Below, in pieces: positions 7,306 to 37,665 of a DNA stretch of 64,000 nucleotides. Position numbers and translations under genes: made by a program. The notes below the pieces were generated by a model. The model saw nothing but the letters and a program-made list of their open reading frames with translations, was not told the origin of the DNA and searched no databases. Numbering within the stretch: position 1 is the first letter of the stretch; every line of letters starts with the position of its first letter. The stretch comes from Patescibacteria group bacterium (GTDB lineage Bacteria > Patescibacteriota > Microgenomatia > PFEM01 > JAHIFH01): the NCBI GenBank assembly GCA_035529375.1, contig DATKWU010000005.1, positions 521 to 64,520 on the forward strand. Reading direction: 5' to 3'.

Positions 7306-13803
<6,498 letters not shown>

Positions 13804-21516: not shown

Positions 21517-21634
21517 GGCCAGCCCTGACCTATTTTCGCAGACCCTTGCGGATCAACTATCGTCGGCGCTGAAGTGTTTGACTTTCGTGTTCGGAATGGG
21601 AACGAGTCGTTCCACTTCGCTCCAAGGACTGGCC
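21517..21634 (-). rRNA. rrf: 5S ribosomal RNA
   Basis: The reverse complement begins GGCCAGTCCTTGGAGCGAAGTGGAACGACTCGTTCCCATTCCGAACACG and ends ...GGCTGGCC. About 118 nt. Lies downstream of 23S on the same strand. Confidence 0.8.
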
Positions 21635-21692
21635 AATTTTTTATTTTGACTCCTTTAAAAGTGAATAGAACAATTTTAATCTACCAAATTTA

Positions 21693-24640
<2,948 letters not shown>

Positions 24641-24723
24641 TGAAGATTTAATCCACCTCCGCCCTTATGGGCTTTGGTAGATATTTTATTACTTTATTCT
24701 ATTCACTTTTCAAGGAGCCAAGG

Positions 24724-24796
24724 TGGACCGAAGCGGCTTCGAACCGCTGACCTCCTGTATGCAAAACAGGTGCTCTGCCAACTGAGCTATCGGCCC
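24724..24796 (-). tRNA. tRNA-Ala (anticodon UGC), in the spacer upstream of 23S
   Basis: The reverse complement GGGCCGATAGCTCAGTTGGCAGAGCACCTGTTTTGCATACAGGAGGTCAGCGGTTCGAAGCCGCTTCGGTCCA folds with G3:U70 and anticodon loop TTTGCAT. Confidence 0.9.
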
Positions 24797-25020
24797 AATT
24801 TTTTTAGCTCTTCATCTATTTCTTTGAGATAAGCTAAAAGAGTCTCGTATTCAGTCATCTTAAGATGATATCTAGTACTATCATGTCCGGGCCAAATTTC
24901 TTCAGAGTCTTCCTCTTCCTCTCTCATCCTTTTTTGAACTTTTCTGAGCCTCTCAAGGGCCTTCTCCTGACTTTGAAGAAGAGCCTTTTTTTTCTCTTCT
25001 TTTGAGATCTGGTTATTCAT
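24787..25020 (-). CDS. Small (77 aa) highly charged coiled-coil protein in the 23S leader region; may be spurious
   Basis: An uninterrupted frame in AT-rich DNA (MNNQISKEEKKKALLQSQEKALERLRKVQKRMREEEEDSEE...) with a heptad-like pattern. Its 3' end overlaps the tRNA-Ala by 10 nt. Confidence 0.3.
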   Translation of the reverse strand: MNNQISKEEKKKALLQSQEKALERLRKVQKRMREEEEDSEEIWPGHDSTRYHLKMTEYETLLAYLKEIDEELKKLGR

Positions 25021-25219
25021 TTCTCAAATTCTTTATTTCTTCTTCGATACTGATTAAATGTGCTCGGGCGACATTCAACTGCGACTCTTGTAACTCTGTA
25101 GCTGAATCCTCGTGTTTAACGCCCTTAAAATTTTTTAACGCTTCATCAAGCTTTGCCTTAGCTTCTTCTTTTTTTATTAATAATTCTTGATATTTATTGA
25201 CCATTTTTCCAAAAAACAA
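25013..25219 (-). CDS. Small (68 aa) coiled-coil protein; overlaps the following ORF by 8 nt; may be spurious
   Basis: MFFGKMVNKYQELLIKKEEAKAKLDEALKNFKG... Uninterrupted frame. Starts 7 nt after a terminator-like hairpin read on the same strand. Confidence 0.3.
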   Translation of the reverse strand: MFFGKMVNKYQELLIKKEEAKAKLDEALKNFKGVKHEDSATELQESQLNVARAHLISIEEEIKNLRNE

Positions 25220-25241
25220 AAAAGTCGCCCGGAGGCGACCC
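25211..25241 (-). terminator. Intrinsic-terminator-like hairpin: GTCGCC-CGGA-GGCGAC followed (on the minus strand) by TTTTTTGTTTTTT
   Basis: Perfect 6-bp GC-rich stem and tetraloop at 25224-25239. A 13-nt T-rich run follows on the minus strand at 25211-25223. On the plus strand the tail is the weaker CCTTTT. Confidence 0.5.
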
Positions 25242-25378
25242 TTTTAAGGTACCTAAGAAATCAGACTACGTCCCACGCCAAAAGAACTTGGTGATAACGT
25301 AATATTTCATCTGATTTCCCATAAGATTAAACCCGTCTGGGTTAAGCCTCCTTAATTACAATCTTATTATATGAGATT

Positions 25379-25407
25379 ATTATACGGAATGACAGAATAG
25401 ATGTCAA
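25379..25407 (-). promoter_or_regulatory. Consensus sigma70 promoter, TTGACA-17-TATAAT, firing toward the 23S side
   Basis: The reverse complement of 25379-25407 reads TTGACATCTATTCTGTCATTCCGTATAAT. Both hexamers are perfect consensus with a 17-nt spacer, as is typical of rRNA P1-type promoters. Confidence 0.55.
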
Positions 25408-25451
25408 GCGGCTAGATATCCACTCTTTTTTATGTTAAAATTTTTCTGATC

Positions 25452-25525
25452 GGGCGCGTAGCTCAGTGGTTTAGAGCGCTTACCTGATAAGTAAGAGGTC
25501 CCTGGTTCGATCCCAGGCGCGCCCA
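25452..25525 (+). tRNA. tRNA-Ile (anticodon GAU), oriented opposite to the flanking 16S/23S genes
   Basis: GGGCGCGTAGCTCAGTGGTTTAGAGCGCTTACCTGATAAGTAAGAGGTCCCTGGTTCGATCCCAGGCGCGCCCA. Anticodon loop CTGATAA. A good 7-bp acceptor stem. Confidence 0.9.
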
Positions 25526-25568
25526 CTGCGTCAAGCCACAGTGGCGTGGTCAAAAAAGACGCCTAATT

Positions 25569-27716
25569 ATGCCCGAAAAAGAAAAAATAATTTTAGAAAT
25601 AAGAATACCTCGCGAAAACGAGTATACCCCAGAATCGGCGGCTAATCTATTCTCTGGTTTCAGTAAAGCCCTTTCTTCTCAGTCAATCTTTCAGAGAATT
25701 CTTAGAAAACAATCAGAACCCTTGATTTTAGAAATTACCTGTCATCAACAAGGAATTCACTTTTATGTGGCTGTTTCTGAAGAACTTTTGCCTTTTTTAG
25801 AGAGCCAAATCTTGGCCGCTTATCCCCTTGCAATTCTTAATCGTGTCCCTGACTATCTCCAAAATTGGGAAAAAGAATCTCTGAAAATCGGCCAGATGAC
25901 TCAATCAACCAGTTATTATTATCCTATTAAAACCTATAAAGAATTCACTGATGTTGATTCACTCTCCTCTATTTTAGCGGTGATGTCAAAAGCCAGCGAA
26001 AATGATCTTTTGTTAATTCAGTTAGTCCTTCAAAAAGCCAGTTCAGGCTGGCAATCGTCAGCTCAAAGGGCCATCACTAAAGGAATCAGAATCAGTGAAA
26101 CAGAAAGGCAAGCTTTACCTGGAGAAAATTTGATTAAACAAAAAATTGAAGAAGGCGGATTAAAAACGGGTATCCGACTAGCTACTTCTTCGGAATTGCT
26201 TTTAAAATCATTAGCTGGTGGTTTTGCTCCTTTTACTCGAGGTGATGGTAACTCCCTAGCTTTCAAAAAGCCTTCTGTTCTAAATAAAAATAAATTAAAA
26301 AACGCCATCTTAACCCACCAATCAGGTTTTACCCCACGTTATCAAATTTTTTCTGTTTCTGAATTGGCCACTTTCTGGCACCTGCCTGGACAAAGTGTCA
26401 AAATTCCTAATATTGCTTGGGGGCGTTCGGTTTTAACCGAAGCACCAGAAAATTTACCAATAGCTGAAGGTTTAACCGAAGAACAAAAGTCAGAAATTAA
26501 TTTCTTTACTAGAACAGAATATAAAAATAAATTGATGACTTTTGGCATAAAAAAGGATGATCGTCGTCGTCATATTTATGCCGTTGGTAAATCTGGTACC
26601 GGTAAATCAACTATGATTGCCAACATGGCCATTGATGATCTGAAAAAGCGCCAGGGTTTGGCAGTAATCGATCCTCATGGTGACCTTTCAGAAATTCTTT
26701 TGGACTATATCCCCTCTCATCGGATAAACGATATCTGTTATTTAAATCCGGCTGATAAAGAATATCCCTTCTCTATCAATATTCTTGAGGTTGATGATCC
26801 TGCGCAAGCTGAACTTGTTGCTTCTGGAATTGTCTCTATTTTCTATAAACTCTACGCTCATTCCTGGGGACCAAGAATGGAATATATTTTGAGAAATACT
26901 TTACTCACCCTGGCTCAAACGCCCAACACTACTTTGGTTGATGTTCCTAGAATTTTAACTAACAAAAATTTCAGAAACGAAATCGTCGAAAAACTTCAAG
27001 ATCAAGTTCTGACCAGCTTTTGGACCGAAGAATATAATAAGATGCCAGACAGATTAAGAGAAGAAGCTATTAATCCCATTTTGAACAAAGTCGGCCAATT
27101 TGTTACTTCACCTTTAATCCGCAGTCTTATTGGCCAACCCAAATCAACTATTAATTTAGAAAGAATCATGAATGAGGGCAAAGTGATTATTCTTAACCTC
27201 TCCCAAGGACGTTTAGGAGAAGATAATGCTGCTCTATTAGGAGCAATGTTAATTACCAAAATTCAATTAGCCGCCATGAATCGGGTTAATATTCCTGAAG
27301 AACAAAGACGGGATTTTTATCTTTACGTCGATGAGTTTCAAAACTTTGCTACCAGGGCTTTTATTAAAATTCTTTCTGAAGCAAGAAAATATCGTCTTAA
27401 CCTTTGTTTAGCTAATCAATACATGGCTCAAATTGACGAAGACGTCCAGAAAGCAATCCTGGGAAACGCTGCCACTTTAATTTCTTTTCTAGTTGGCGCC
27501 GAAGACGCCAATATCTTAGAAAGAGAGTTTGGGGGTATTTATACAGAACAAGATTTGGTTGGTCTTTCCAACTTCCAAGTCGTGACTAAACTAGCGGTTG
27601 ATAATATTACTTCCAGACCTTTCTTTGCCTATACCCTACCCCTACCTAAATCTAAGAACCAAAACCGAGAAAAAGTCATCAGAGTTTCAAGAGAAAGATT
27701 TTCTTATAAAAAGTAA
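25569..27716 (+). CDS. TrwB/TraD/VirD4-like (FtsK-HerA superfamily) P-loop ATPase with an N-terminal ~330-aa domain of unknown function and no predicted TM helices
   Basis: Walker A GKSGTGKST, followed by the family-typical AVIDPHGDL. Walker B YLYVDEFQNF. Downstream LCLANQYMAQID. The N-terminal third has no recognisable motif. Confidence 0.65.
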   Translation: MPEKEKIILEIRIPRENEYTPESAANLFSGFSKALSSQSIFQRILRKQSEPLILEITCHQQGIHFYVAVSEELLPFLESQILAAYPLAILNRVPDYLQNWEKESLKIGQMTQSTSYYYPIKTYKEFTDVDSLSSILAVMSKASENDLLLIQLVLQKASSGWQSSAQRAITKGIRISETERQALPGENLIKQKIEEGGLKTGIRLATSSELLLKSLAGGFAPFTRGDGNSLAFKKPSVLNKNKLKNAILTHQSGFTPRYQIFSVSELATFWHLPGQSVKIPNIAWGRSVLTEAPENLPIAEGLTEEQKSEINFFTRTEYKNKLMTFGIKKDDRRRHIYAVGKSGTGKSTMIANMAIDDLKKRQGLAVIDPHGDLSEILLDYIPSHRINDICYLNPADKEYPFSINILEVDDPAQAELVASGIVSIFYKLYAHSWGPRMEYILRNTLLTLAQTPNTTLVDVPRILTNKNFRNEIVEKLQDQVLTSFWTEEYNKMPDRLREEAINPILNKVGQFVTSPLIRSLIGQPKSTINLERIMNEGKVIILNLSQGRLGEDNAALLGAMLITKIQLAAMNRVNIPEEQRRDFYLYVDEFQNFATRAFIKILSEARKYRLNLCLANQYMAQIDEDVQKAILGNAATLISFLVGAEDANILEREFGGIYTEQDLVGLSNFQVVTKLAVDNITSRPFFAYTLPLPKSKNQNREKVIRVSRERFSYKK

Positions 27717-27736
27717 CCTCAACTTTTCAGTGGCAT

Positions 27737-27767
27737 TAAAAAACCACCTTGATTAGGTGGTTTTTTC
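27737..27767. terminator. Bidirectional rho-independent terminator (AAAAAACCACCT-TGATT-AGGTGGTTTTTT) between the ATPase gene and the 16S 3' end
   Basis: 7-bp stem ACCACCT/AGGTGGT, 5-nt loop, flanked by an A6 tract upstream and a T6 tract downstream. Convergent genes lie on either side. Confidence 0.7.
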
Positions 27768-27888
27768 TTTAACCCTATTTACTGTGGTAGGAGACGTTAG
27801 TTTTGTTTCCTATCTCATAAATGAGATAAGCAAGAAAAACCAACAAAATCTTGGGGTGTCTTTTCCGCCAAAGGCGGATCGTTCACTC

Positions 27889-29350
<1,462 letters not shown>

Positions 29351-29505
29351 AAAAAAATTTCCTACCACAATAAATATTGTTAAAGGTTTACTATTCAATT
29401 TTCAAAGGACTCCTAAAAACTTAAAATCCCGGACCAAGCCGGGATTAATGCTTTATTGCGGGCAAACGCCCGACCTGGTCATTAAACTATGTCATTTCTT
29501 GGTTG

Positions 29506-29534
29506 ATGATAACAAAATAGTTCTTAACTGTCAA
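29506..29534 (-). promoter_or_regulatory. Candidate 16S promoter, TTGACA-17-TATCAT, lying within the 3' end of mnmA
   Basis: The reverse complement of 29506-29534 reads TTGACAGTTAAGAACTATTTTGTTATCAT. Located about 160 nt upstream of the mature 16S 5' end. Confidence 0.5.
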
Positions 29535-30625
29535 TCCCTATTCAAGCTAATTATTCCGCCTCCAAATACTTCCTCGCCTTGATAAAAAACCGCTGCTTGA
29601 CCAGGAGCGACGCCTCGTTCTGATTCATCCAAAACAACTTTTACTTCTTTCTTTCCTCTAATCCTTGCTTTCAGAAGATCACCCTGATGACGAATTCTTA
29701 CCTGACACTTTATTTCTTTTTTAGGCGGATTTCCAGAAAGCCAATTAACGTCTTTAACTAAAAATTCTTTCTTTTCTACTTCTTTGCCAAAACCGACGAC
29801 TAACTGATTCTTTTTAACTTTCTTATCAACTACATAAAGAGGTCCTAGGACTTTTTTGTCAGTAATCTTAAAACCGTGCCTTTGGCCCACCGTATACAAA
29901 GGCAATCCTAAATGTTTACCAATCACTTGACCTTTAAGATTAACCACTTCACCAGGAATGATTTTTTCTTTAATTTGCCGTTTTAAAAAAGGTCGATAAT
30001 CATCTTCTGGGAAAAAACAAATTTCTTGAGATTCAGGTCTTTCGGCCACTGGTAACTGCCATTTTTTAGCCATTTTAATTACTTCTTTTTTTTGATAATC
30101 ACCAACAGGAAAAAATATCTTGGCTAGCTTTTTTTGATTAAGATTGTAAAGAAAATAAGATTGGTCTTTTTTCTTGTCTTTTCCCTTTAAAAGATGAAAC
30201 TGTTTGTTTTTTACTATCCTTGCGTAATGACCGGTGGCCAAATAATCGTGGCCTAAATTTTGAGCATAAGTCATTAATTCTCCAAATTTGATAAAACGAT
30301 TACAAACAACACAAGGATTTGGGGTTCGTCCTAAACCATATTCTCTTAAAAAGTAGTCAACTACTCTTTTTTTAAAAAGAGGGGCCACAAAGTCAACTTT
30401 AAAAAAAGGTATCTTTAATTGACTAGCGGTTCGTTGAGCCGATTGTAAACTGGCGGTATCGCAACACTTATTTAAAAAAGTCTGATCTTTTTCCCTTTCT
30501 GACCAAAGTTGCAGATGGAAACCCGCTACTTTGTAACCTTGTTTGACCAGTAAGACTGCGGCCACTCCGGAATCAACTCCCCCGCTCATAGCAACGGCGA
30601 CTTTTTGTTTCTTCATGCCCCTCAT
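29531..30625 (-). CDS. mnmA: tRNA-specific 2-thiouridylase MnmA
   Basis: PP-loop SGGVDSGVAA at the N-terminus. Conserved Cys residues (CCD, NPCVVCN). Typical length of 364 aa. Confidence 0.88.
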   Translation of the reverse strand: MRGMKKQKVAVAMSGGVDSGVAAVLLVKQGYKVAGFHLQLWSEREKDQTFLNKCCDTASLQSAQRTASQLKIPFFKVDFVAPLFKKRVVDYFLREYGLGRTPNPCVVCNRFIKFGELMTYAQNLGHDYLATGHYARIVKNKQFHLLKGKDKKKDQSYFLYNLNQKKLAKIFFPVGDYQKKEVIKMAKKWQLPVAERPESQEICFFPEDDYRPFLKRQIKEKIIPGEVVNLKGQVIGKHLGLPLYTVGQRHGFKITDKKVLGPLYVVDKKVKKNQLVVGFGKEVEKKEFLVKDVNWLSGNPPKKEIKCQVRIRHQGDLLKARIRGKKEVKVVLDESERGVAPGQAAVFYQGEEVFGGGIISLNRD

Positions 30626-31667: not shown

Positions 31668-31859
31668 TTAATCCTTACGTGATTCGCTTTTTTCAGTAGT
31701 CCCGGTAAGGCCGTCTTTGATTTTTTTAATTTCTCTGAAGCTTTCTCCCCCTACCCTGCCTAATTTAATGGCGAATTTACCGCCAAACAGGACCACAAGG
31801 ATCAGAACAATAAGAATTACTTCTGTTGGACTGATATTTTTTAAGAAACTAAACATTTG
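31668..31859 (-). CDS. Second TatA/TatB-like subunit
   Basis: From the internal Met of the track ORF: MFSFLKNISPTEVILIVLILVVLFGGKFAIKLGRVGGESFREIKKIKDG (TM, FGG-K hinge, amphipathic helix). Start choice uncertain. Confidence 0.5.
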   Translation of the reverse strand, partial: QMFSFLKNISPTEVILIVLILVVLFGGKFAIKLGRVGGESFREIKKIKDGLTGTTEKSESRKD

Positions 31860-31914: not shown

Positions 31915-32160
31915 TTATTTTTTACCCATACTAGCTGCAAACCAATTAGAACCATCATAATACTCCAGACTGTTGGTTTGCAAGTTAAATCCCAAGATTC
32001 CCTGTTTGGCCTTTTTTGGTCTCTCCCCTGTTTTCCAGGAGGCAATTTTGGGCATGCCGAGCATTAAGAATAAGTCTTGACCGATATTTAGCAGGAGCGG
32101 ATAACTCTTTTCCATTTTGACTTCACATCCATTGTATAGACTTTTTTCTTTTGGTGTCAA
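31915..32160 (-). CDS. Small (81 aa) protein whose C-terminal ~50 aa are homologous to the C-terminus of the adjacent giant Ser/Pro-repeat protein
   Basis: PKIASWKTGERPKKAKQGILGFNLQTNSLEYYDGSNWF aligns with SIPSWNTTGRPKKAKKGTFGFNVESKTLEFWNGTSWL of ORF 32191-36333. Confidence 0.5.
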   Translation of the reverse strand: MTPKEKSLYNGCEVKMEKSYPLLLNIGQDLFLMLGMPKIASWKTGERPKKAKQGILGFNLQTNSLEYYDGSNWFAASMGKK

Positions 32161-32190
32161 GTTTTAAGGGGGAGAAAAATTTTTGAGGGG

Positions 32191-35100
32191 TTAGCTGATT
32201 TTTTTCATTGGCAATTTCAGCCAAGAAGTTCCATTCCAGAACTCCAATGTTTTGCTTTCCACATTAAAGCCAAAAGTGCCCTTTTTAGCTTTCTTGGGCC
32301 GGCCAGTAGTGTTCCAAGAAGGAATGGAAACAGCCTTTAAGCCTAAATAACCCCTCTTGCTAACAACTTCCCTACCAACAATGAGGGGGTGTTTGTTAAA
32401 GATAACTGGCGCCGGAGGCGGAGTAGGAACAGGCCGAGGACTGGGCGAAGCTGAAGGTGAGGGGCTAATACTGGGTGAAGGTGTTGGTGAGGGTGAACCC
32501 GGTGTTGGTGAGGGTGATGGCGATGGGCTGGGGCTAGCAGACGTCGGTGAGGGTAGTGAGGGTGATGATGAAGGCGATGGAGATATTGAGCCACTGAGTG
32601 AGACCGACGGACTAAGACTAACGAGAATCGACGGTGAAACGCTTGGACTAATTGAGGCTGAGGGGCTGAGACTGGGTGAAACACTTGGACTAACTGATGC
32701 TGATGGACTAACGCTGGGTGAAACGCTTGGACTAACTGAAGCAGACGGACTGACCGATGGACTAGCCGAGGGGCTAAGCGATGGGCTGGCTGAAGGGCTA
32801 ACACTTGGACTAACTGAAGCAGAAGGACTAACGCTGGGTGAAACACTTGGACTAACTGATGCTGATGGACTGACACTTGGACTAGCCGAGGGGCTAAGCG
32901 ATGGGCTGGCTGAAGGGCTAACTGAAGGGGAAACACTGGCTGACGGAGAAACGCTAGGACTGACCGATAGACTGACCGAGGGACTCAGACTCGGTGAAAC
33001 AGACGGACTCAGACTCGGAGAGACACTTGGTGAAACTGACGGACTTAAAGAGGGACTAGCCGATGGTGAAATACTGGCACTCGGACTAAGGGAGGGACTA
33101 ACGCTTGGTGAAATTGAAGGAGACAAACTGGGACTCAAACTGGGAGATACCGAGGCAGATGGTGAAACACTTGGCGATATCGAAGGCGAAACCGATGGGC
33201 TTACTATCGGAGACAGACTTGGCGATACACTCGGTGAAATTGAAGGCGAGACCGAAGGGCTAGCACTCGGTGATACTGATGGACTAATACTGGGTGAAAT
33301 TGAAGAAGATACTGAAGCACTTGGTGATACCGATGGACTCACACTGGGTGATACTGAGGGACTAATTGACGGACTGACTGATGGTGAAGCAGATGGGCTA
33401 ACACTTGGAGAAACACTCGGTGAAACACTTGGACTGACGCTCGGCGAAACCGAAGCAGATGGTGAGACACTCGGCGATACTGAAGGAGAAAGCGATGGGC
33501 TCGCACTAGGTGAGGCCGACGGACTAATTGATGGGCTTACGCTTGGAGATGCGCTTGGTGATACTGAAGGGCTAATTGATGGTGATATCGAAGCCGAGGG
33601 AGATACTGAGGGGCTGATACTCGGAGAAACGGAAGGAGAAACTGATGGACTAACACTTGGAGAGACACTGGGGCTAATACTCGGGCTAACCGATGGCGAA
33701 ACACTAGGTGAAACACTTGGGCTGATCGAAGCAGAAGGACTAATTGATGGTGAAGCTGATGGGCTAATTGATGGTGAAGCAGAGGGAGATGCCGATGGTG
33801 AAACACTTGGACTAGCGCTTGGAGAAACACTGGGCGATACAGAAGCTGAAGGAGAAACGCTCGGACTCACAGAGGGTGAAATACTGGGTGAGACTGATGG
33901 ACTAGCTGATGGACTCACAGAGGGTGAAATACTGGGTGAAACTGAGGGACTAGCGCTTGGACTAATACTCGGACTGACTGAAGCGGAGGGTGAGACTGAT
34001 GGGCTGACAGATAGACTGGCACTGGGTGAAACAGACGGACTTACAGACGGTGAAACACTTGCCGATGGAGAGACTGAGGGTGAGATTGATGGCGAGACAG
34101 AGGGACTGACTGAGGGAGATGCCGATGGTGAAACTGATGGACTAGCGCTTGGACTAACACTCGGACTCACAGAGGGTGAGACACTGGGTGAGACTGAAGG
34201 TGAAACACTTGCCGATGGGCTGACTGACGGACTGACTGAAGGACTCACACTAGGTGAGACTGATGGGCTGACAGATACACCGATAGAGGGTGAAACTGAT
34301 GGACTTACTGAAGGCGAAACAGATGGACTGACACTGGGTGAAACTGAAGCCGATGGACTGACTGAAGGGCTGACTGAAGGTGAGACTGATGGACTAACTG
34401 ACGGAGAAACAGATGGACTGGCACTGGGTGAGACTGATGGGCTGACTGACGGAGAAGCAGATGGAGAAATTGAAGGTGAGACGCTGGCACTCGGTGAAAC
34501 GGATGGGCTTACCGATGGACTAACTGAAGGTGAAACTGAAGGAGAAACGCTAGGTGAAACACTCGGAGAAACAGACGGACTCACAGAGGGTGAGACACTT
34601 GCCGATGGAGAGACTGAAGGTGAAACTGATGGCGAGATAGACGGACTGACCGAGGGAGATGCCGATGGCGAAACAGATGGACTAGCGCTTGGACTAACGC
34701 TCGGACTCACAGAAGGTGAAACACTGGGTGAGACTGACGGTGAAACACTAGCTGATGGAGAGACTGAAGGTGAAACTGAAGGTGAAGCACTCGGAGATAC
34801 ACTCGGGGAAACTGAAGGCGAAACAGATGGACTAGCGCTTGGAGAAACAGACGGTGAAACACTTGCTGATGGACTAACTGAAGGAGAAACGCTGGGTGAA
34901 ACCGACGGGCTAGCGCTTGGACTAACGCTCGGACTGACTGAAGCGGAGGGTGATACTGACGGACTCACAGAGGGTGAAACACTGGGTGAGACTGATGGAC
35001 TAACTGAAGGCGAAACAGATGGACTAGCGCTTGGAGAAACACTGGGCGATACAGAAGCTGAAGGTGAAACGCTCGGACTCACAGAGGGTGAGACGCTGGG

Positions 35101-36333
35101 GCTTACTGAAGGACTTATAGATACACCGATAGAGGGTGAAACGCTTGGAGAGACAGACGGCGAAGCAGAAGGACTGACCGACGGTGAAACGCTTGCCGAT
35201 GGACTAACTGACGGGCTGACCGATGGTGAGACGCTGGGTGAGACTGATGGACTTACAGACGGACTGGCACTAGGACTCACTGAAGGACTAACTGAAGGAG
35301 AAGCAGAAGGACTGACTGAAGGTGAAACACTTGCGCTCGGTGAAACAGACGGACTGACCGAGGGTGAGACGCTGGGGCTGACAGACGGGCTCACACTGGG
35401 TGAAACTGATGGACTAACGCTTGGAGAGACAGACGGCGAAACGCTTGCTGATGGACTGACACTGGGACTCACTGAAGGACTAACTGAAGGAGAAACCGAT
35501 GGACTGACTGAAGGAGAGACTGAAAGCGAGACTGAAGGGCTAACACTCGGCGAAACACTCGGAGAAACCGATGGACTGGCTGAAGGTGAAATACTGGGAC
35601 TCACTGAAGGACTAACTGAAGGGCTCACACTAGCTGAGGGAGAAACTGATGGTGAAACCGATGGGGAAATCGATGGTGAAACAGATGGACTGACCGAGGG
35701 GGAAATCGATGGTGAAACAGATGGACTGACCGACGGGCTAGCACTTGGCGAAACACTCGGGGAAGCTGAAGGAGAAACCGATGGGGAAACACTGGGAGAG
35801 ACACTTGGACTGGCTGAAGGACCAGATGCCGTCAAAACCTGCGAGTGGGATTTATCTGTATCCAAAGGAATTATGGCGCCGGCAATTTTGACCCGGAAAT
35901 AATAGGTGGTGCTAGAAGAAACATTGGCCGTCGGGACAATACAAACATCAAATTCGTTATTCTTTTTTTTAGTAACCGCGCAAGTATAAGTACCGCTTTC
36001 AATGTATTGCCCTTGCGAGGTGGTGTCAGTCAAAAGCCATTGCCCAACCACAGGTGGAGAAGGATTCCCTTCGGTTGCTTGACCATCGGCATAATTCCAG
36101 TGATTAGCAGCACCAAAAGACGTCCAACCATCAATATCATTAAGGGAATACTCCATCGTCCAAGCCCCACTCCCGTTTGTGTTACCTGTTTCCCCAATAC
36201 GGATTCTCAATCTGGTCTTGTTGATATTATTGGGTAAGGTTGGCTTGGTATTTTCATTAGCCAGCTGGCTTGATGGTTCGATACCATCGTCCTGAAACCA
36301 TTTCCAATTTCCTTGGTTGGGTGTAAATGCCAT
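32191..36333 (-). CDS. Giant (1380 aa) protein: N-terminal ~170-aa globular domain, ~1100 aa of tandem [V/A/I/L]SPS tetrapeptides, Pro-rich linker, conserved ~55-aa C-terminal domain
   Basis: The non-repetitive N-terminus (MAFTPNQGNWKWFQDDGIEPSS...YYFRVKIAGAIIPLD) has no obvious signal peptide. About 275 VSPS/ASPS/ISPS/LSPS units follow. Then PSPSPSPTPGSPSPTPSP...PVPTPPPAPV. The C-terminus is shared with ORF 31915-32160. Confidence 0.8.
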   Translation of the reverse strand: MAFTPNQGNWKWFQDDGIEPSSQLANENTKPTLPNNINKTRLRIRIGETGNTNGSGAWTMEYSLNDIDGWTSFGAANHWNYADGQATEGNPSPPVVGQWLLTDTTSQGQYIESGTYTCAVTKKKNNEFDVCIVPTANVSSSTTYYFRVKIAGAIIPLDTDKSHSQVLTASGPSASPSVSPSVSPSVSPSASPSVSPSASPSVSPSVSPSISPSVSPSVSPSISPSVSPSVSPSASVSPSVSPSVSPSISPSASPSVSPSVSPSVSPSVSLSVSPSVSPSVSPSVSPSVSPSVSPSASVSPSVSPSVSPSVSPSVSPSVSPSVSPSVSPSVSPSASVSPSVSPSASPSVSPSVSPSASPSVSPSVSPSVSPSVSPSVSPSASVSPSVSPSASPSVSPSVSPSIGVSISPSVSPSVSPSVSPSVSPSASVSPSVSPSASPSVSPSVSPSVSPSVSPSVSPSVSPSASVSPSVSPSASPSVSPSVSPSVSPSASVSPSVSPSASPSVSPSVSPSVSPSASPSVSPSVSPSASVSPSVSPSVSPSVSPSVSPSASPSVSPSASPSVSPSISPSVSPSVSPSASVSPSVSPSVSPSVSPSVSPSVSPSVSPSVSPSVSPSASVSPSISPSASPSVSPSVSPSASPSVSPSVSPSVSPSVSPSVSPSASVSPSVSPSVSPSVSPSVSPSIGVSVSPSVSPSVSPSVSPSVSPSASVSPSVSPSVSPSVSPSVSPSASPSVSPSASPSVSPSVSPSISPSVSPSASVSPSVSPSVSPSASLSVSPSVSPSASVSPSISPSASPSVSPSISPSVSPSASPSVSPSISPSVSPSVSPSASVSPSVSPSASPSVSPSASPSASPSISPSASPSISPSASISPSVSPSVSPSVSPSISPSVSPSVSPSVSPSVSPSISPSVSPSASISPSISPSVSPSASPSVSPSISPSASPSASPSLSPSVSPSVSPSASVSPSVSPSVSPSVSPSVSPSASPSVSPSISPSVSPSVSPSVSPSASVSSSISPSISPSVSPSASPSVSPSISPSVSPSLSPIVSPSVSPSISPSVSPSASVSPSLSPSLSPSISPSVSPSLSPSASISPSASPSLSPSVSPSVSPSLSPSVSPSLSPSVSLSVSPSVSPSASVSPSVSPSASPSLSPSASPSVSPSASVSPSVSPSVSPSASVSPSVSPSASPSLSPSASPSVSPSASVSPSVSPSVSPSASVSPSVSPSLSPSASISPSVSPSILVSLSPSVSLSGSISPSPSSSPSLPSPTSASPSPSPSPSPTPGSPSPTPSPSISPSPSASPSPRPVPTPPPAPVIFNKHPLIVGREVVSKRGYLGLKAVSIPSWNTTGRPKKAKKGTFGFNVESKTLEFWNGTSWLKLPMKKIS
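32370..35820 (-). repeat. About 3.4 kb coding minisatellite: tandem 12-nt units (plus-strand register about GGTGARACNGAT/GGACTRACTGAA) encoding the SPS tetrapeptide array, ending in a Pro/Ser-rich tail
   Basis: 12-nt periodicity with many imperfect copies is visible throughout 32.44-35.83 kb. Shadow ORFs appear in several frames and on both strands. Confidence 0.9.
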
Positions 36334-36558: not shown

Positions 36559-37665
36559 TTACTGTGCCGGACGTCGATAATGGGCAAGGCCAATTTCTAG
36601 ATGCTGGATAGTGGATTGAGCCGAAAAAATCACCCCGGAGGAAGGCAAGGATGATTTTTTCCTAGCCGGTTTGGTAGCGATATGTTTTGAACTGAGTTTG
36701 GCTTCTTTAGTTTTGAGTTTTTTCAAATCTTCATCGGTCCAACCTTTAACCGGCCAGAATTTCTCCACCAACCAAGAAACCGGATGCTTCTGATCTGGCA
36801 AACCCTTCAAGATTTGTTCCCAGACTTTTTTTCTGACCTCGTGCTGATCCTTACCTGAAGCAGGCCAAGGAAAACTAAAAGTGGCGTTTTTCGTCCGAAA
36901 CATATGGGCATACCAAGTTTGGTGGTTAACCAGCACCCGGCCACCTTTCAACCAGGTTTTACAAGCGACTTCAATGCCTTGATGTCCCCAATTGCCAAGC
37001 GTTTCATCACACAAATTCCAATCCCAATATAATTGACGCAGACACATAAAACATGATCCTTGAATTGACATTATTTCGGTTAATCCCTTCTCCTTCTTAT
37101 CTTTTTTGTATTCTGGCCGGCGGCGATATTCACCAAAATAAGCAAATGTGGGTTGAGCGTCAAAACAATAGGAATCGCTCTGGGGCCGCTCTTTGCCGAT
37201 CCAAAGCATTTTTTTCTTCATTTTGTTCCCACAAGCAGGACATTTGGGTTCCCGATCTTGGTAAACTCGCTTGCCGCATTTATAGCACTTCCAGTCATAA
37301 GCCCACAGATTTCTCATCACCGGAAGCATCACCACTTTTTCATCCACTTTTCGGAAAGCCTCAATCATTTTTCTATCAAAACCCTTATCAAATGAACAAT
37401 GAGCGTCCAATTTCATCACGTATTTGGCCCGGCTTAAGCGACAGGCCAGATTCTGAGCCGCCCTTTGGCCAATCGCCGGATTAACATAAATTAGACTCAC
37501 CCGATCATGTTGTTCTATGGGTGAGTTGGCCCATTGGCCATCTAAAACAGCAATCACTTCCGTATCGGCCTCGATATTTTTTAAAATATCCTCGATCGTG
37601 TTTTCCAGGAATTCCTCATTCCTGGCTGGTATTAAGATTGACAAATCACGCATAACCGACAGCAA
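36559..37665 (-). CDS. Family 2 glycosyltransferase (GT-A) with an inserted Cys4 zinc-ribbon and a Lys-rich C-terminal tail
   Basis: N-terminal LSILIPARNEE...VIAVLDGQ...KLDAHCSF (GT2 DxD/DAH region). CYKCGKRV...CPACGN insertion. Paralogous to ORF 44525-45331 (QGSC-W, GG-L-VN--TW-AH). Confidence 0.7.
   Translation of the reverse strand: MLSVMRDLSILIPARNEEFLENTIEDILKNIEADTEVIAVLDGQWANSPIEQHDRVSLIYVNPAIGQRAAQNLACRLSRAKYVMKLDAHCSFDKGFDRKMIEAFRKVDEKVVMLPVMRNLWAYDWKCYKCGKRVYQDREPKCPACGNKMKKKMLWIGKERPQSDSYCFDAQPTFAYFGEYRRRPEYKKDKKEKGLTEIMSIQGSCFMCLRQLYWDWNLCDETLGNWGHQGIEVACKTWLKGGRVLVNHQTWYAHMFRTKNATFSFPWPASGKDQHEVRKKVWEQILKGLPDQKHPVSWLVEKFWPVKGWTDEDLKKLKTKEAKLSSKHIATKPARKKSSLPSSGVIFSAQSTIQHLEIGLAHYRRPAQ

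Follow-up and report, generated by a model that had tools for sequence, protein, structure and literature searches.

Gene order at the locus

The 64,000 nucleotides analysed here (the window; contig DATKWU010000005.1, positions 521 to 64,520) are chromosomal DNA of a Microgenomates bacterium, within the candidate phyla radiation (CPR) or Patescibacteria. On the minus strand, sugar genes (DegT aminotransferase, methyltransferases) are followed by a GT2 glycosyltransferase gene, the gene for a giant fibre-like protein, a small gene that we call S, a tatA-like gene, tatA, tatC and mnmA, and an rRNA operon lies 2.5 kb from this locus (Table 1). S is the stand-alone, 66-amino-acid (aa) copy of a module that occurs again at the C-terminus of the giant; the latter copy is referred to as C, loci of relatives carry L-numbers and proteins P-numbers. 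The closest loci come from metagenome-assembled genomes named as Woese-, Levy-, Davies-, Roizman- and Collierbacteria and 'Microgenomatus'. As described below, S and C are old paralogues under purifying selection, S is encoded next to tat genes across these lineages, the giants differ in their N-terminal heads, and the core of the module recurs in phage fibres. Our preferred reading, to which we give a probability of about 45%, is that the 66-aa unit is the constant base domain, for oligomerisation or anchoring, of a fibre encoded by the cell, and that S is its free partner subunit. A prophage origin of the locus was considered and rejected, because housekeeping genes and the rRNA operon flank it and it is conserved at the level of the class.

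S and C are two old groups of paralogues

The initial annotation, made from the letters of the window, had noted that the last ~55 aa of the giant recur in an adjacent 81-aa open reading frame (ORF). The tail of the giant (...VIFNKHPLIVGREVVSKRGYLGLKAVSIPSWNTTGRPKKAKKGTFGFNVESKTLEFWNGTSWLKLPMKKIS) and that of the small ORF (...PKIASWKTGERPKKAKQGILGFNLQTNSLEYYDGSNWFAASMGKK) are both found on the minus strand where it had placed them. In a single BLASTP comparison, the last 80 aa of ORF 32191-36333 and the 81-aa ORF had 24/64 identities (38%) and 63% positives, with E=1e-15. When a profile built from relatives was run against all six-frame ORFs of the window, there were two strong matches, the small ORF (E=6.6e-40) and the C module of the giant (E=7.8e-30), the next having E=0.17. 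The paralogy therefore holds, and the prospect, raised at the outset, that the similarity would prove insignificant on computation did not materialize; the proposed length does not hold, as the homologous span is ~64-66 aa.

No DNA repeat of 12 nucleotides (nt) or more was found between the S and C copies. Because the likeness exists at the protein level only, with no shared DNA tract, the duplication must be old. In 27 genomes in which both copies are readable, identity was 55% within S and 54% within C, compared with 43-45% between S and C, and the nearest neighbour in another genome was of the same type for 53 of the 54 sequences. The two types have diagnostic tails, W-[YF]-x-A-x-M in S and W-L-K-L-P-M-K-[KR]-I in C. 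They also differ at the N-terminus, where the hairpin P-L-L-x-D-I-G-Q-G-L-S-x-M-x-G-L-P-x-I has 52% identity among S sequences and is not conserved among C sequences (16%). We conclude from these comparisons that S and C form two separate orthologous groups of long standing, between which there is no trace of gene conversion. The duplication is thus older than the radiation of these lineages, with both copies retained separately since.

Identity between S and C was 44.7% within a genome and 43.0% across genomes, a tiny effect (permutation p=0.002) in a set that includes near-duplicate genomes; we have discounted it as evidence for an interaction.

S is a working gene

The 81-aa reading of the small ORF has to be abandoned. 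Its TTG start, at 32160, lies within the TTGACA -35 hexamer of a putative sigma70-like promoter that matches the consensus at 11/12 positions, and the gene itself begins at the ATG at 32115 and encodes 66 aa. Relatives of S are all 64-68 aa long and start at the equivalent methionine. Both promoter hexamers are retained in a relative, L002, and the promoter probably drives S together with the tatA-like, tatA and tatC genes.

Identity of S in close relatives is 85-91%, and the S gene has dN/dS values of 0.22-0.53, compared with 0.18-0.28 in the C-terminal 66 codons of the giant, from which we conclude that S is under purifying selection. A search of 5.8 billion proteins with the S profile gave 521 matches at E<=1e-3; nearly all of the 120 matches listed are 'hypothetical proteins' of 64-68 aa from Roizman-, Curtiss- and other Microgenomates bacteria. 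The small ORF, whose absence or lack of conservation in relatives would have told against it, thus belongs to a conserved family. As judged by its conservation, S is a working gene, and it is described by neither of the two alternatives offered in the initial annotation, namely that the ORF is what a partial duplication left behind, or a silent cassette from which the C-terminus could be exchanged by recombination.

S and the giant form a conserved cluster with the tat genes

Gene order was compared in 28 S-seeded loci from species-representative genomes. In ~22 of these, belonging to Woese-, Levy-, Davies-, Roizman- and Collierbacteria, S, tatA-like, tatA and tatC come in this order after one or two large proteins with a C module. 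The exceptions are mostly contig ends. In L019, unrelated genes come after S. ORFs resembling IS200/Y1 transposases lie on the 3' side of S in L015 (2627-3400), L030 (466-1695) and L034 (8153-9229), where the tat genes are absent; the ORF follows S directly in L030 and L034, the latter with a truncated S, and comes after an intervening methyltransferase-like ORF in L015.

The reverse test used 26 loci from a TatC-seeded metagenome search (59-91% identity). S stood immediately before the two tatA genes in all 20 loci with enough upstream DNA, and 18 had a large protein with a C module. The proposed check of whether giants in related genomes are trailed by similar small ORFs is therefore positive in dozens of genomes. 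The flanks of the cluster vary, mnmA following tatC in just three of 39 loci, and in at least seven distinct loci the giant gene has a GT2 homologue on its upstream side. The tatA-like proteins of relatives match Pfam TatA_B_E weakly, and their TatC proteins match PF00902.

Three loci (L016, L018 and L019) have one S gene and two tandem giants. L050 has S-tatA-tatA-tatC with no adjacent giant gene, from which it follows that the tie of S to tat is closer than its tie to the giant. In L032 (4779-8159), the giant has an S-type tail (...WLAAPLS) and is directly next to the tatA-like gene, with no separate S gene, an arrangement that resembles a natural fusion of C and S or the product of a deletion between the paralogues. 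Literature searches on DUF7360, on Tat or TatC of Patescibacteria or Microgenomates, and on serine-rich surface proteins returned nothing that describes the cluster, and the arrangement of S, giant and Tat appears to be undescribed.

The giants have constant C-termini and variable heads

The giant of the window begins, at its N-terminus, with a globular head of ~170 aa (about 35824-36333), which a repeat spacer of ~1100 aa and a Pro-rich linker connect to the C module. The spacer is made of S-P-S-[V/A/I] repeats, with 35-53% Ser and 9-23% Pro, the remainder including Val and Ala; the sole period that Tandem Repeats Finder reported in this region at a score of at least 200 is 120 nt. Pfam and NCBIfam searches with the head gave no match. 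The N-terminus, MAFTPNQGNWKWFQDDG, has no hydrophobic segment, and neither do ~20 complete homologues; no signal peptide, transmembrane (TM) segment or twin-arginine (RR) motif was found among these heads.

S is at least 85% identical between the window and its close relatives L037, L040 and L002 (TatC is 91% identical where measured, in L040), and yet the heads of the four giants are mutually unrelated (E>1 in all pairwise BLASTP comparisons). The giants are 1380, 1502, 1336 and 1196 aa long respectively. In these four relatives the upstream DNA is 87-90% identical as far as the start codon of the giant, and similarity returns within the repeats; the break lies exactly at the start codon (window 35824-36333, L037 from 3416, L040 from 240, L002 from 6359). 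Head exchange looks like cassette replacement, for which the upstream flank and the Ser/Pro repeats are possibly the homology arms. Among more distant loci the heads form several families and singletons. A variable head, a shared spacer and a constant module make an architecture that is the reverse of a C-terminal cassette. The giant ORF of L002 also crosses a segment with a YkgJ-like Cys cluster.

The antisense strand of the Ser/Pro repeats is free of stops over 1181 codons in the window (32357-35902, +; GETDGLTE...), and such an antisense ORF has been called in place of the giant gene in L001 (7600-9834), L002 (7279-9834), L037 (3958-7806) and L038 (1096-4824). Because gene callers choose it, the giants are largely missing from protein databases, which yielded just C-terminal fragments such as P0012-P0014. 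A different protein, P0078 (277 aa), which came from the search of representatives described below, has a C-type module with the LKLPMRKI end on the N-terminal side of a ~200-aa domain that has no Pfam match; the base domain may therefore serve other cargo as well as Ser/Pro fibres.

The giant resembles the serine-rich repeat glycoprotein adhesins (SRRPs) of Gram-positive bacteria, such as GspB, Fap1 and the SRRP of L. reuteri, which are exported by the accessory Sec system (PMC6973325; PMC7661464). Shared features are a variable binding region, a very long Ser-rich stalk that is probably O-glycosylated, a C-terminal anchoring element, glycosyltransferase genes beside the structural gene and export machinery encoded alongside. 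Unlike SRRPs, the giant has no long N-terminal signal peptide, ends in ...WLKLPMKKIS with no LPXTG motif or TM tail, and has tatA, tatA and tatC as neighbours, with no SecA2, SecY2 or Asp genes among the ORFs scanned in the 64-kb window. Its repeats are S-P-S-[VAI], compared with S-[AVE]-S in SRRPs, and its head is at the extreme N-terminus. Because it lacks the signal peptide, the LPXTG motif and the accessory Sec genes, we conclude that on sequence features the giant is an analogue of the SRRPs and not a member.

The module is related to a repeat of phage tail fibres

The initial annotation had pointed to a resemblance to short tail-fibre or tail-collar-like motifs, and the link to tail fibres is borne out. 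Both S (E=2.5e-8) and C (E=4.1e-8) match PHROG 1325, at profile positions 40-81 of 334, as well as ~15 other phage PHROG families of unknown function and one 'tail fiber protein' family. The shared part is a ~40-aa core, W-x-T-x-x-R-P-x5-G-x-x-G-F-N-x5-L-E-x-[WY]-x-G-x-x-W, which tblastn found in 345 phage records. In gp26 of Streptomyces phage Yosif, annotated as a minor tail protein (E=1e-6), it lies between the N-terminal domain and HxH fibre repeats, and the C-terminus is a Peptidase_S74 endosialidase-chaperone domain. Cyanophage tail-fibre proteins contain ...MPSGTTAQRPGSPNSGMLRFNTDTSTFEGHNGSAW..., and in Synechococcus phage S-CAM8 (L066, 2498-7134) a 'fiber protein' gene is followed by five genes in a row that have the core at aa ~30-90. 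The distal parts of these five are all different, one being a glycine-rich domain, which suggests that they encode interchangeable fibres with a common attachment module.

Curated families are matched less well. Neither copy of the window had a Pfam match at E<=10, and an NCBIfam search with S gave none. Among 109 small proteins of the family, 50 matched PF24059 (DUF7360) weakly, with a best E of 7.5e-5 and none documented above the 27.6-bit gathering score, and 11 matched DUF2510 weakly. These scores suggest that the module is related to the DUF7360/PHROG 1325 repeat, which is catalogued without an assigned function, but place it below the curated threshold for membership. An exhaustive profile search of 1.84 billion representatives found 978 proteins at E<=1e-3; among the best 150 of these, 89 have multiple copies in tandem (up to 23), 34 are stand-alone proteins of at most 100 aa and 18 have a single C-terminal copy. 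One multi-copy representative has a T7 tail-fibre N-terminal domain.

The phage repeat, as seen in Yosif gp26 and in T4-like fibre and 'sericin-like' proteins of cyanophages, has the same ~40-aa core (W/P-x-G-T-x-x-R-P-x5-G-x-x-x-[FY]-N-x5-E-x-[WY]-x-G-x-x-W), is joined to variable distal domains and occurs in proteins with parts typical of trimeric fibres, namely the N-terminal domain of the T7 tail fibre or the S74 chaperone; cyanophages also have small stand-alone versions of 76-85 aa. The module described here differs in being cellular and chromosomal, beside tat genes and an rRNA operon, and in being conserved across a bacterial class. It is C-terminal, whereas phage copies lie near the N-terminus or in tandem arrays, and it has an extra N-terminal hairpin (making the unit 66 aa), a free paralogue and a basic loop after R-P (RPKKAK). 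This loop has 1.74 Lys or Arg per five residues in the stand-alone and C-terminal copies of Microgenomates, compared with 0.06 in internal, phage-type copies.

The predicted fold resembles subdomains of trimeric fibres

S and the C module were modelled as monomers with AlphaFold2, S from an alignment of 109 homologues and C from one dominated by S sequences. The S model (predicted local distance difference test, pLDDT, 87.7) is all-beta; residues 7-19 form a hairpin and residues 41-62 a meander of three strands. The model of C has the same three strands, with a core pLDDT >90 and its first 26 residues uncertain.

The closest geometries in the PDB are all subdomains of homotrimeric fibres or spikes, with TM-scores of 0.5-0.6 and a root mean square deviation (rmsd) of 1.4-2.8 Å over 45-48 columns, at Foldseek E values of 0.6-2, which are non-significant. 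They include tailspike TSP3 of phage CBA120 (rmsd 1.4 Å over 45 columns, probability 0.98), the domains of which have been described (PMC6517402), the trimerisation domains of collagens XV and XVIII (TM-score 0.55-0.59), Mtd and the HylP fibre. Like these subdomains (the multiplexin collagen domains, the N-terminal domain of Mtd, CBA120 TSP3 and HylP), the module is predicted to be a small all-beta unit, similar in size and topology, although the likeness is one of fold, with no relationship in sequence. Among predicted viral structures (BFVD) there were >1000 matches with a probability of about 1.0, including tail-fibre-like, collagen-repeat, LamG and glycine-rich proteins and the cyanophage proteins of 76-85 aa.

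A proposed constant base for cellular fibres

We believe that the results above are best explained if C and S together build the base of a fibre. The initial annotation had proposed a shared anchoring, sorting or assembly module; a shared, conserved module is what the comparisons reveal, and assembly or anchoring is the best-supported reading of its role. The giant would consist of an exchangeable N-terminal head, probably for ligand or host binding, a Ser/Pro spacer and a constant C-terminal domain. By analogy with the SRRPs (PMC6973325; PMC7661464), the spacer would probably be O-glycosylated through the linked GT2 and sugar genes, the GT2 being the candidate glycosylase of the Ser-rich region. 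Because the core is used in phage fibres beside parts for virion attachment or the shaft, the base domain most likely oligomerises, probably as a trimer, and so fixes the base of the fibre. S would co-assemble with the C domains of one or more fibres, either by joining them in one oligomer or by stacking on them as a cap or socket, and would be the common base or anchor subunit for whichever fibres the cell makes. The RPKKAK loop is a candidate contact for an anionic component of the envelope. With S and tat presumably transcribed from one promoter, assembly of the base may be coupled to export of the pre-folded fibre, and a functional link between S and Tat is possible on grounds of gene order.

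Several observations weigh against this explanation. S and the giants have no signal peptide, TM segment or RR motif; because they have no export signal, their location at the surface is itself something that we infer. Identity of S and C within a genome barely exceeds that across genomes, so that co-evolution of an interface is not evident. The S gene of L050 has no giant beside it, and L032 shows that a free S is dispensable in places. The structural likeness to fibre subdomains is non-significant, the match to TSP3 is assigned to no particular subdomain, and sequence searches of the PDB with S and with the 109-sequence profile found no significant match to a solved structure. Finally, neighbours in a tat operon need not serve Tat export, as exemplified by tatD of E. 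coli.

The strongest of the alternatives, although we hold it to be unlikely, makes S an adaptor for Tat. S would bind the C module of signal-less, pre-folded and probably glycosylated fibres and deliver them to the divergent TatA/TatA/TatC, in a non-canonical form of hitchhiking. This would account for the adjacency of S to the tat genes in 20/20 TatC-seeded and ~22/28 S-seeded loci while the flanks vary, for the tie of S to tat rather than to the giant in L050, and for the promoter of its own with which S heads the tat genes. The exceptions to adjacency coincide with IS200-like insertions. The giants have no N-terminal signal of any kind, TatC and the first TatA-like protein are divergent, with scores under the equivalog cut-offs, and the N-terminal hairpin is conserved in S only and not in C copies. 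However, S and C both lack a twin-arginine motif, a search of the ORFs of the window for RR signals, of the form S/T-R-R-x-F-L-K with a following h-region, found none, and Tat targeting in which none of the partners bears an RR signal is not known to us. Ordinary Tat substrates do exist: L040 encodes a textbook twin-arginine protein of 296 aa (GGLSRRLFLGGTLATASLCAG; SRRLFLGG) on the minus strand, with a start near 10597, ~5 kb from the tat genes. It is the one clear candidate in 571 kb of related loci, with no counterpart seen in the window, and it weakens the idea of a Tat system without ordinary substrates. 'Passenger' genes of the tatD type in tat operons also argue against reading adjacency as function.

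Partial parallels for such an export route exist. The Tat pathway carries folded proteins; 'hitchhiker' export, in which signal-less partners cross with signal-bearing ones (e.g. hydrogenase HybOC, DmsAB), has been described (PMC10924467), and the 'tafi' surface filaments of Haloarcula are Tat-dependent (PMC11821415). In such systems folded or oligomeric proteins with no signal of their own can be carried across by a partner, and Tat can be needed for filaments at the surface; here the genes adjoin tatA and tatC. The known hitchhiker cases have at least one partner with a twin-arginine signal, whereas neither S nor the giant has one. A broader proposal, that C and S serve to hand over giant fibres, already folded and glycosylated and with hypervariable heads, to a divergent Tat independently of a signal peptide, and that this would be the main display route for host-attachment fibres of Microgenomates episymbionts, seems to us quite doubtful. 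If a functional Tat link were real, it would extend the range of Tat recognition.

A second alternative, which we consider rather unlikely, is that S is an assembly chaperone or nucleator that transiently templates the folding or trimerisation of the C-terminal domain of the fibre and is absent from the final structure. The tail-fibre assembly proteins of phages (lambda Tfa, Mu Tfa, T4 gp38) are encoded just downstream of the fibre genes. S likewise is a small gene directly 3' of the fibre gene at nearly all loci, with a presumed action on the C-terminal region; its predicted fold is that of the domain to be templated, a single S would serve several fibres in L016, L018 and L019, and the core has phage-fibre ancestry. 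These chaperones, however, belong to other families and are not paralogues of the fibre tip, and the C-terminus of the giant is a constant base, not a receptor-binding tip. S has no likeness to known tail-fibre assembly families (e.g. Caudo_TAP; no Pfam match at E<=10), its PHROG matches being fibre-like or of unknown function with no chaperone among them. In addition, S is tied more strictly to tat than to the fibre gene, and a C-type module alone is predicted to fold confidently.

It is also conceivable, but improbable, that the W/G hairpin binds carbohydrate of the cell wall or host in the manner of the ~47-aa blades of tachylectin-2 or PLL-type propellers, with S and C forming a multi-blade ring. 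Relatives often have 4-23 tandem copies, a tachylectin-2 fragment was second in the Foldseek ranking, and there were weak profile matches to a blade of a fucose-binding propeller lectin (6htn, E=1.1) and a sugar-binding domain of a glycoside hydrolase (E=0.11), in addition to the DUF2510 matches above. All of these matches are non-significant, the tachylectin superposition has an rmsd of 14 Å and a probability of 0.15, and the best structural likeness is to subdomains of trimeric fibres. The silent cassette or decaying remnant has next to no probability left, since S, although adjacent to its supposed parent in the same orientation and perhaps subject to rare recombination with it, as L032 suggests, has its own ATG and promoter, keeps its length in more than 500 sequences with dN/dS below 1, belongs to an orthologous group separate from that of C with no DNA tract of 12 nt or more in common, and stands next to a giant whose variable part is the N-terminal head.

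The ultra-small CPR bacteria account for much of the diversity of bacteria, and most of them are attached to other cells; how they build their attachment structures is largely obscure. The locus is a conserved module of five to six genes (GT2, one or more giant fibres, S, TatA, TatA and TatC) across the Microgenomates lineages sampled, and current annotation has missed it because gene callers often take the antisense ORF over the repeats. It is a candidate apparatus for host recognition, with head cassettes that differ between near-identical strains. On the reading of S and C as a fibre base, what is new here is a cellular fibre system with a base domain of the phage-fibre type, which is otherwise typical of tail fibres, in which a paralogue of that domain serves as a free base subunit and the association with the tat genes is conserved. 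It also raises the question of how giant proteins without signals leave a cell with a minimal genome.

Other features of the window

Table 1. Coordinates of the S, giant and tat locus and of a related motif in the window
Feature	Position	Strand	Basis
Hairpin motif, weakly related, in the 2122-aa protein	8611..8673	+	Profile E=0.17, third-best ORF of the window
tatC, 248 aa	30698..31444	-	TIGR00945, E=4e-34, 118 bits, under the equivalog cut-off of 132.7
tatA gene 2, 55 aa	31454..31621	-	TIGR01411 (tatAE), 53.9 bits, equal to the cut-off
tatA-like gene 1, 62 aa (MFSFLK...), divergent TatA/B type	31668..31856	-	NCBIfam TatA models, E=1.7e-8, below cut-off
S gene, 66 aa (MEKSYPLL...SMGKK), including stop codon	31915..32115	-	ATG at 32115; relatives; dN/dS; AlphaFold2 model
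Sigma70-like promoter, TTGACA-18-TACAAT	32131..32160	-	11/12 match to consensus
C module of the giant, aa ~1313-1380, ...NKHPLIVGREVVSKRGYLGLKAVSIPSWNTTGRPKKAKKGTFGFNVESKTLEFWNGTSWLKLPMKKIS	32194..32397	-	BLASTP against S; profile match; dN/dS; AlphaFold2 core
Giant fibre gene, 1380 aa	32191..36333	-	ORF and translation; relatives share spacer and module, with unrelated heads
GT2 glycosyltransferase with Cys-rich insertion	36559..37665	-	PF00535, E=4e-12; upstream of the giant gene

A 2122-aa protein (7435-13803, +) was thought to contain the hairpin motif twice. The first copy (aa 393-413) is present, but marginal (E=0.17); the second (aa 937-956, nt 10243-10302) is without the terminal G-x-x-W and is not detected by the profile. 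The build of the protein is unusual: an N-terminal segment like the SAM domain of phage integrases is followed by a TM helix, the hairpin motif and collagen-like G-x-T repeats over ~300 aa, and then by DUF2341, three YmaF-like (H-x-H) repeats and a long acidic tail. The first hairpin lies directly before the collagen-like repeats (Collagen, PF01391), a parallel to collagen-type trimerisation domains, and the protein is probably another surface fibre.

Between 14000 and 64000 the minus strand carries nearly all genes and the GC skew stays negative; the Ser/Pro repeat region (32-36 kb) is the exception, with a GC content that rises to 0.50-0.52 and a strongly positive skew. The rRNA operon (21517-29355) comprises 16S (27892-29355, -), tRNA-Ile (+), tRNA-Ala, 23S (21717-24632, -) and 5S genes, and is interrupted between the two tRNA genes by a gene for a VirD4/TraG-like coupling protein of 715 aa (25569-27716, +). 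An ORF that overlaps the 16S gene (29064-29582, +) is probably spurious. The same coupling-protein gene is found at the corresponding position in L001, L002 and L037, a few kb past tatC and mnmA.

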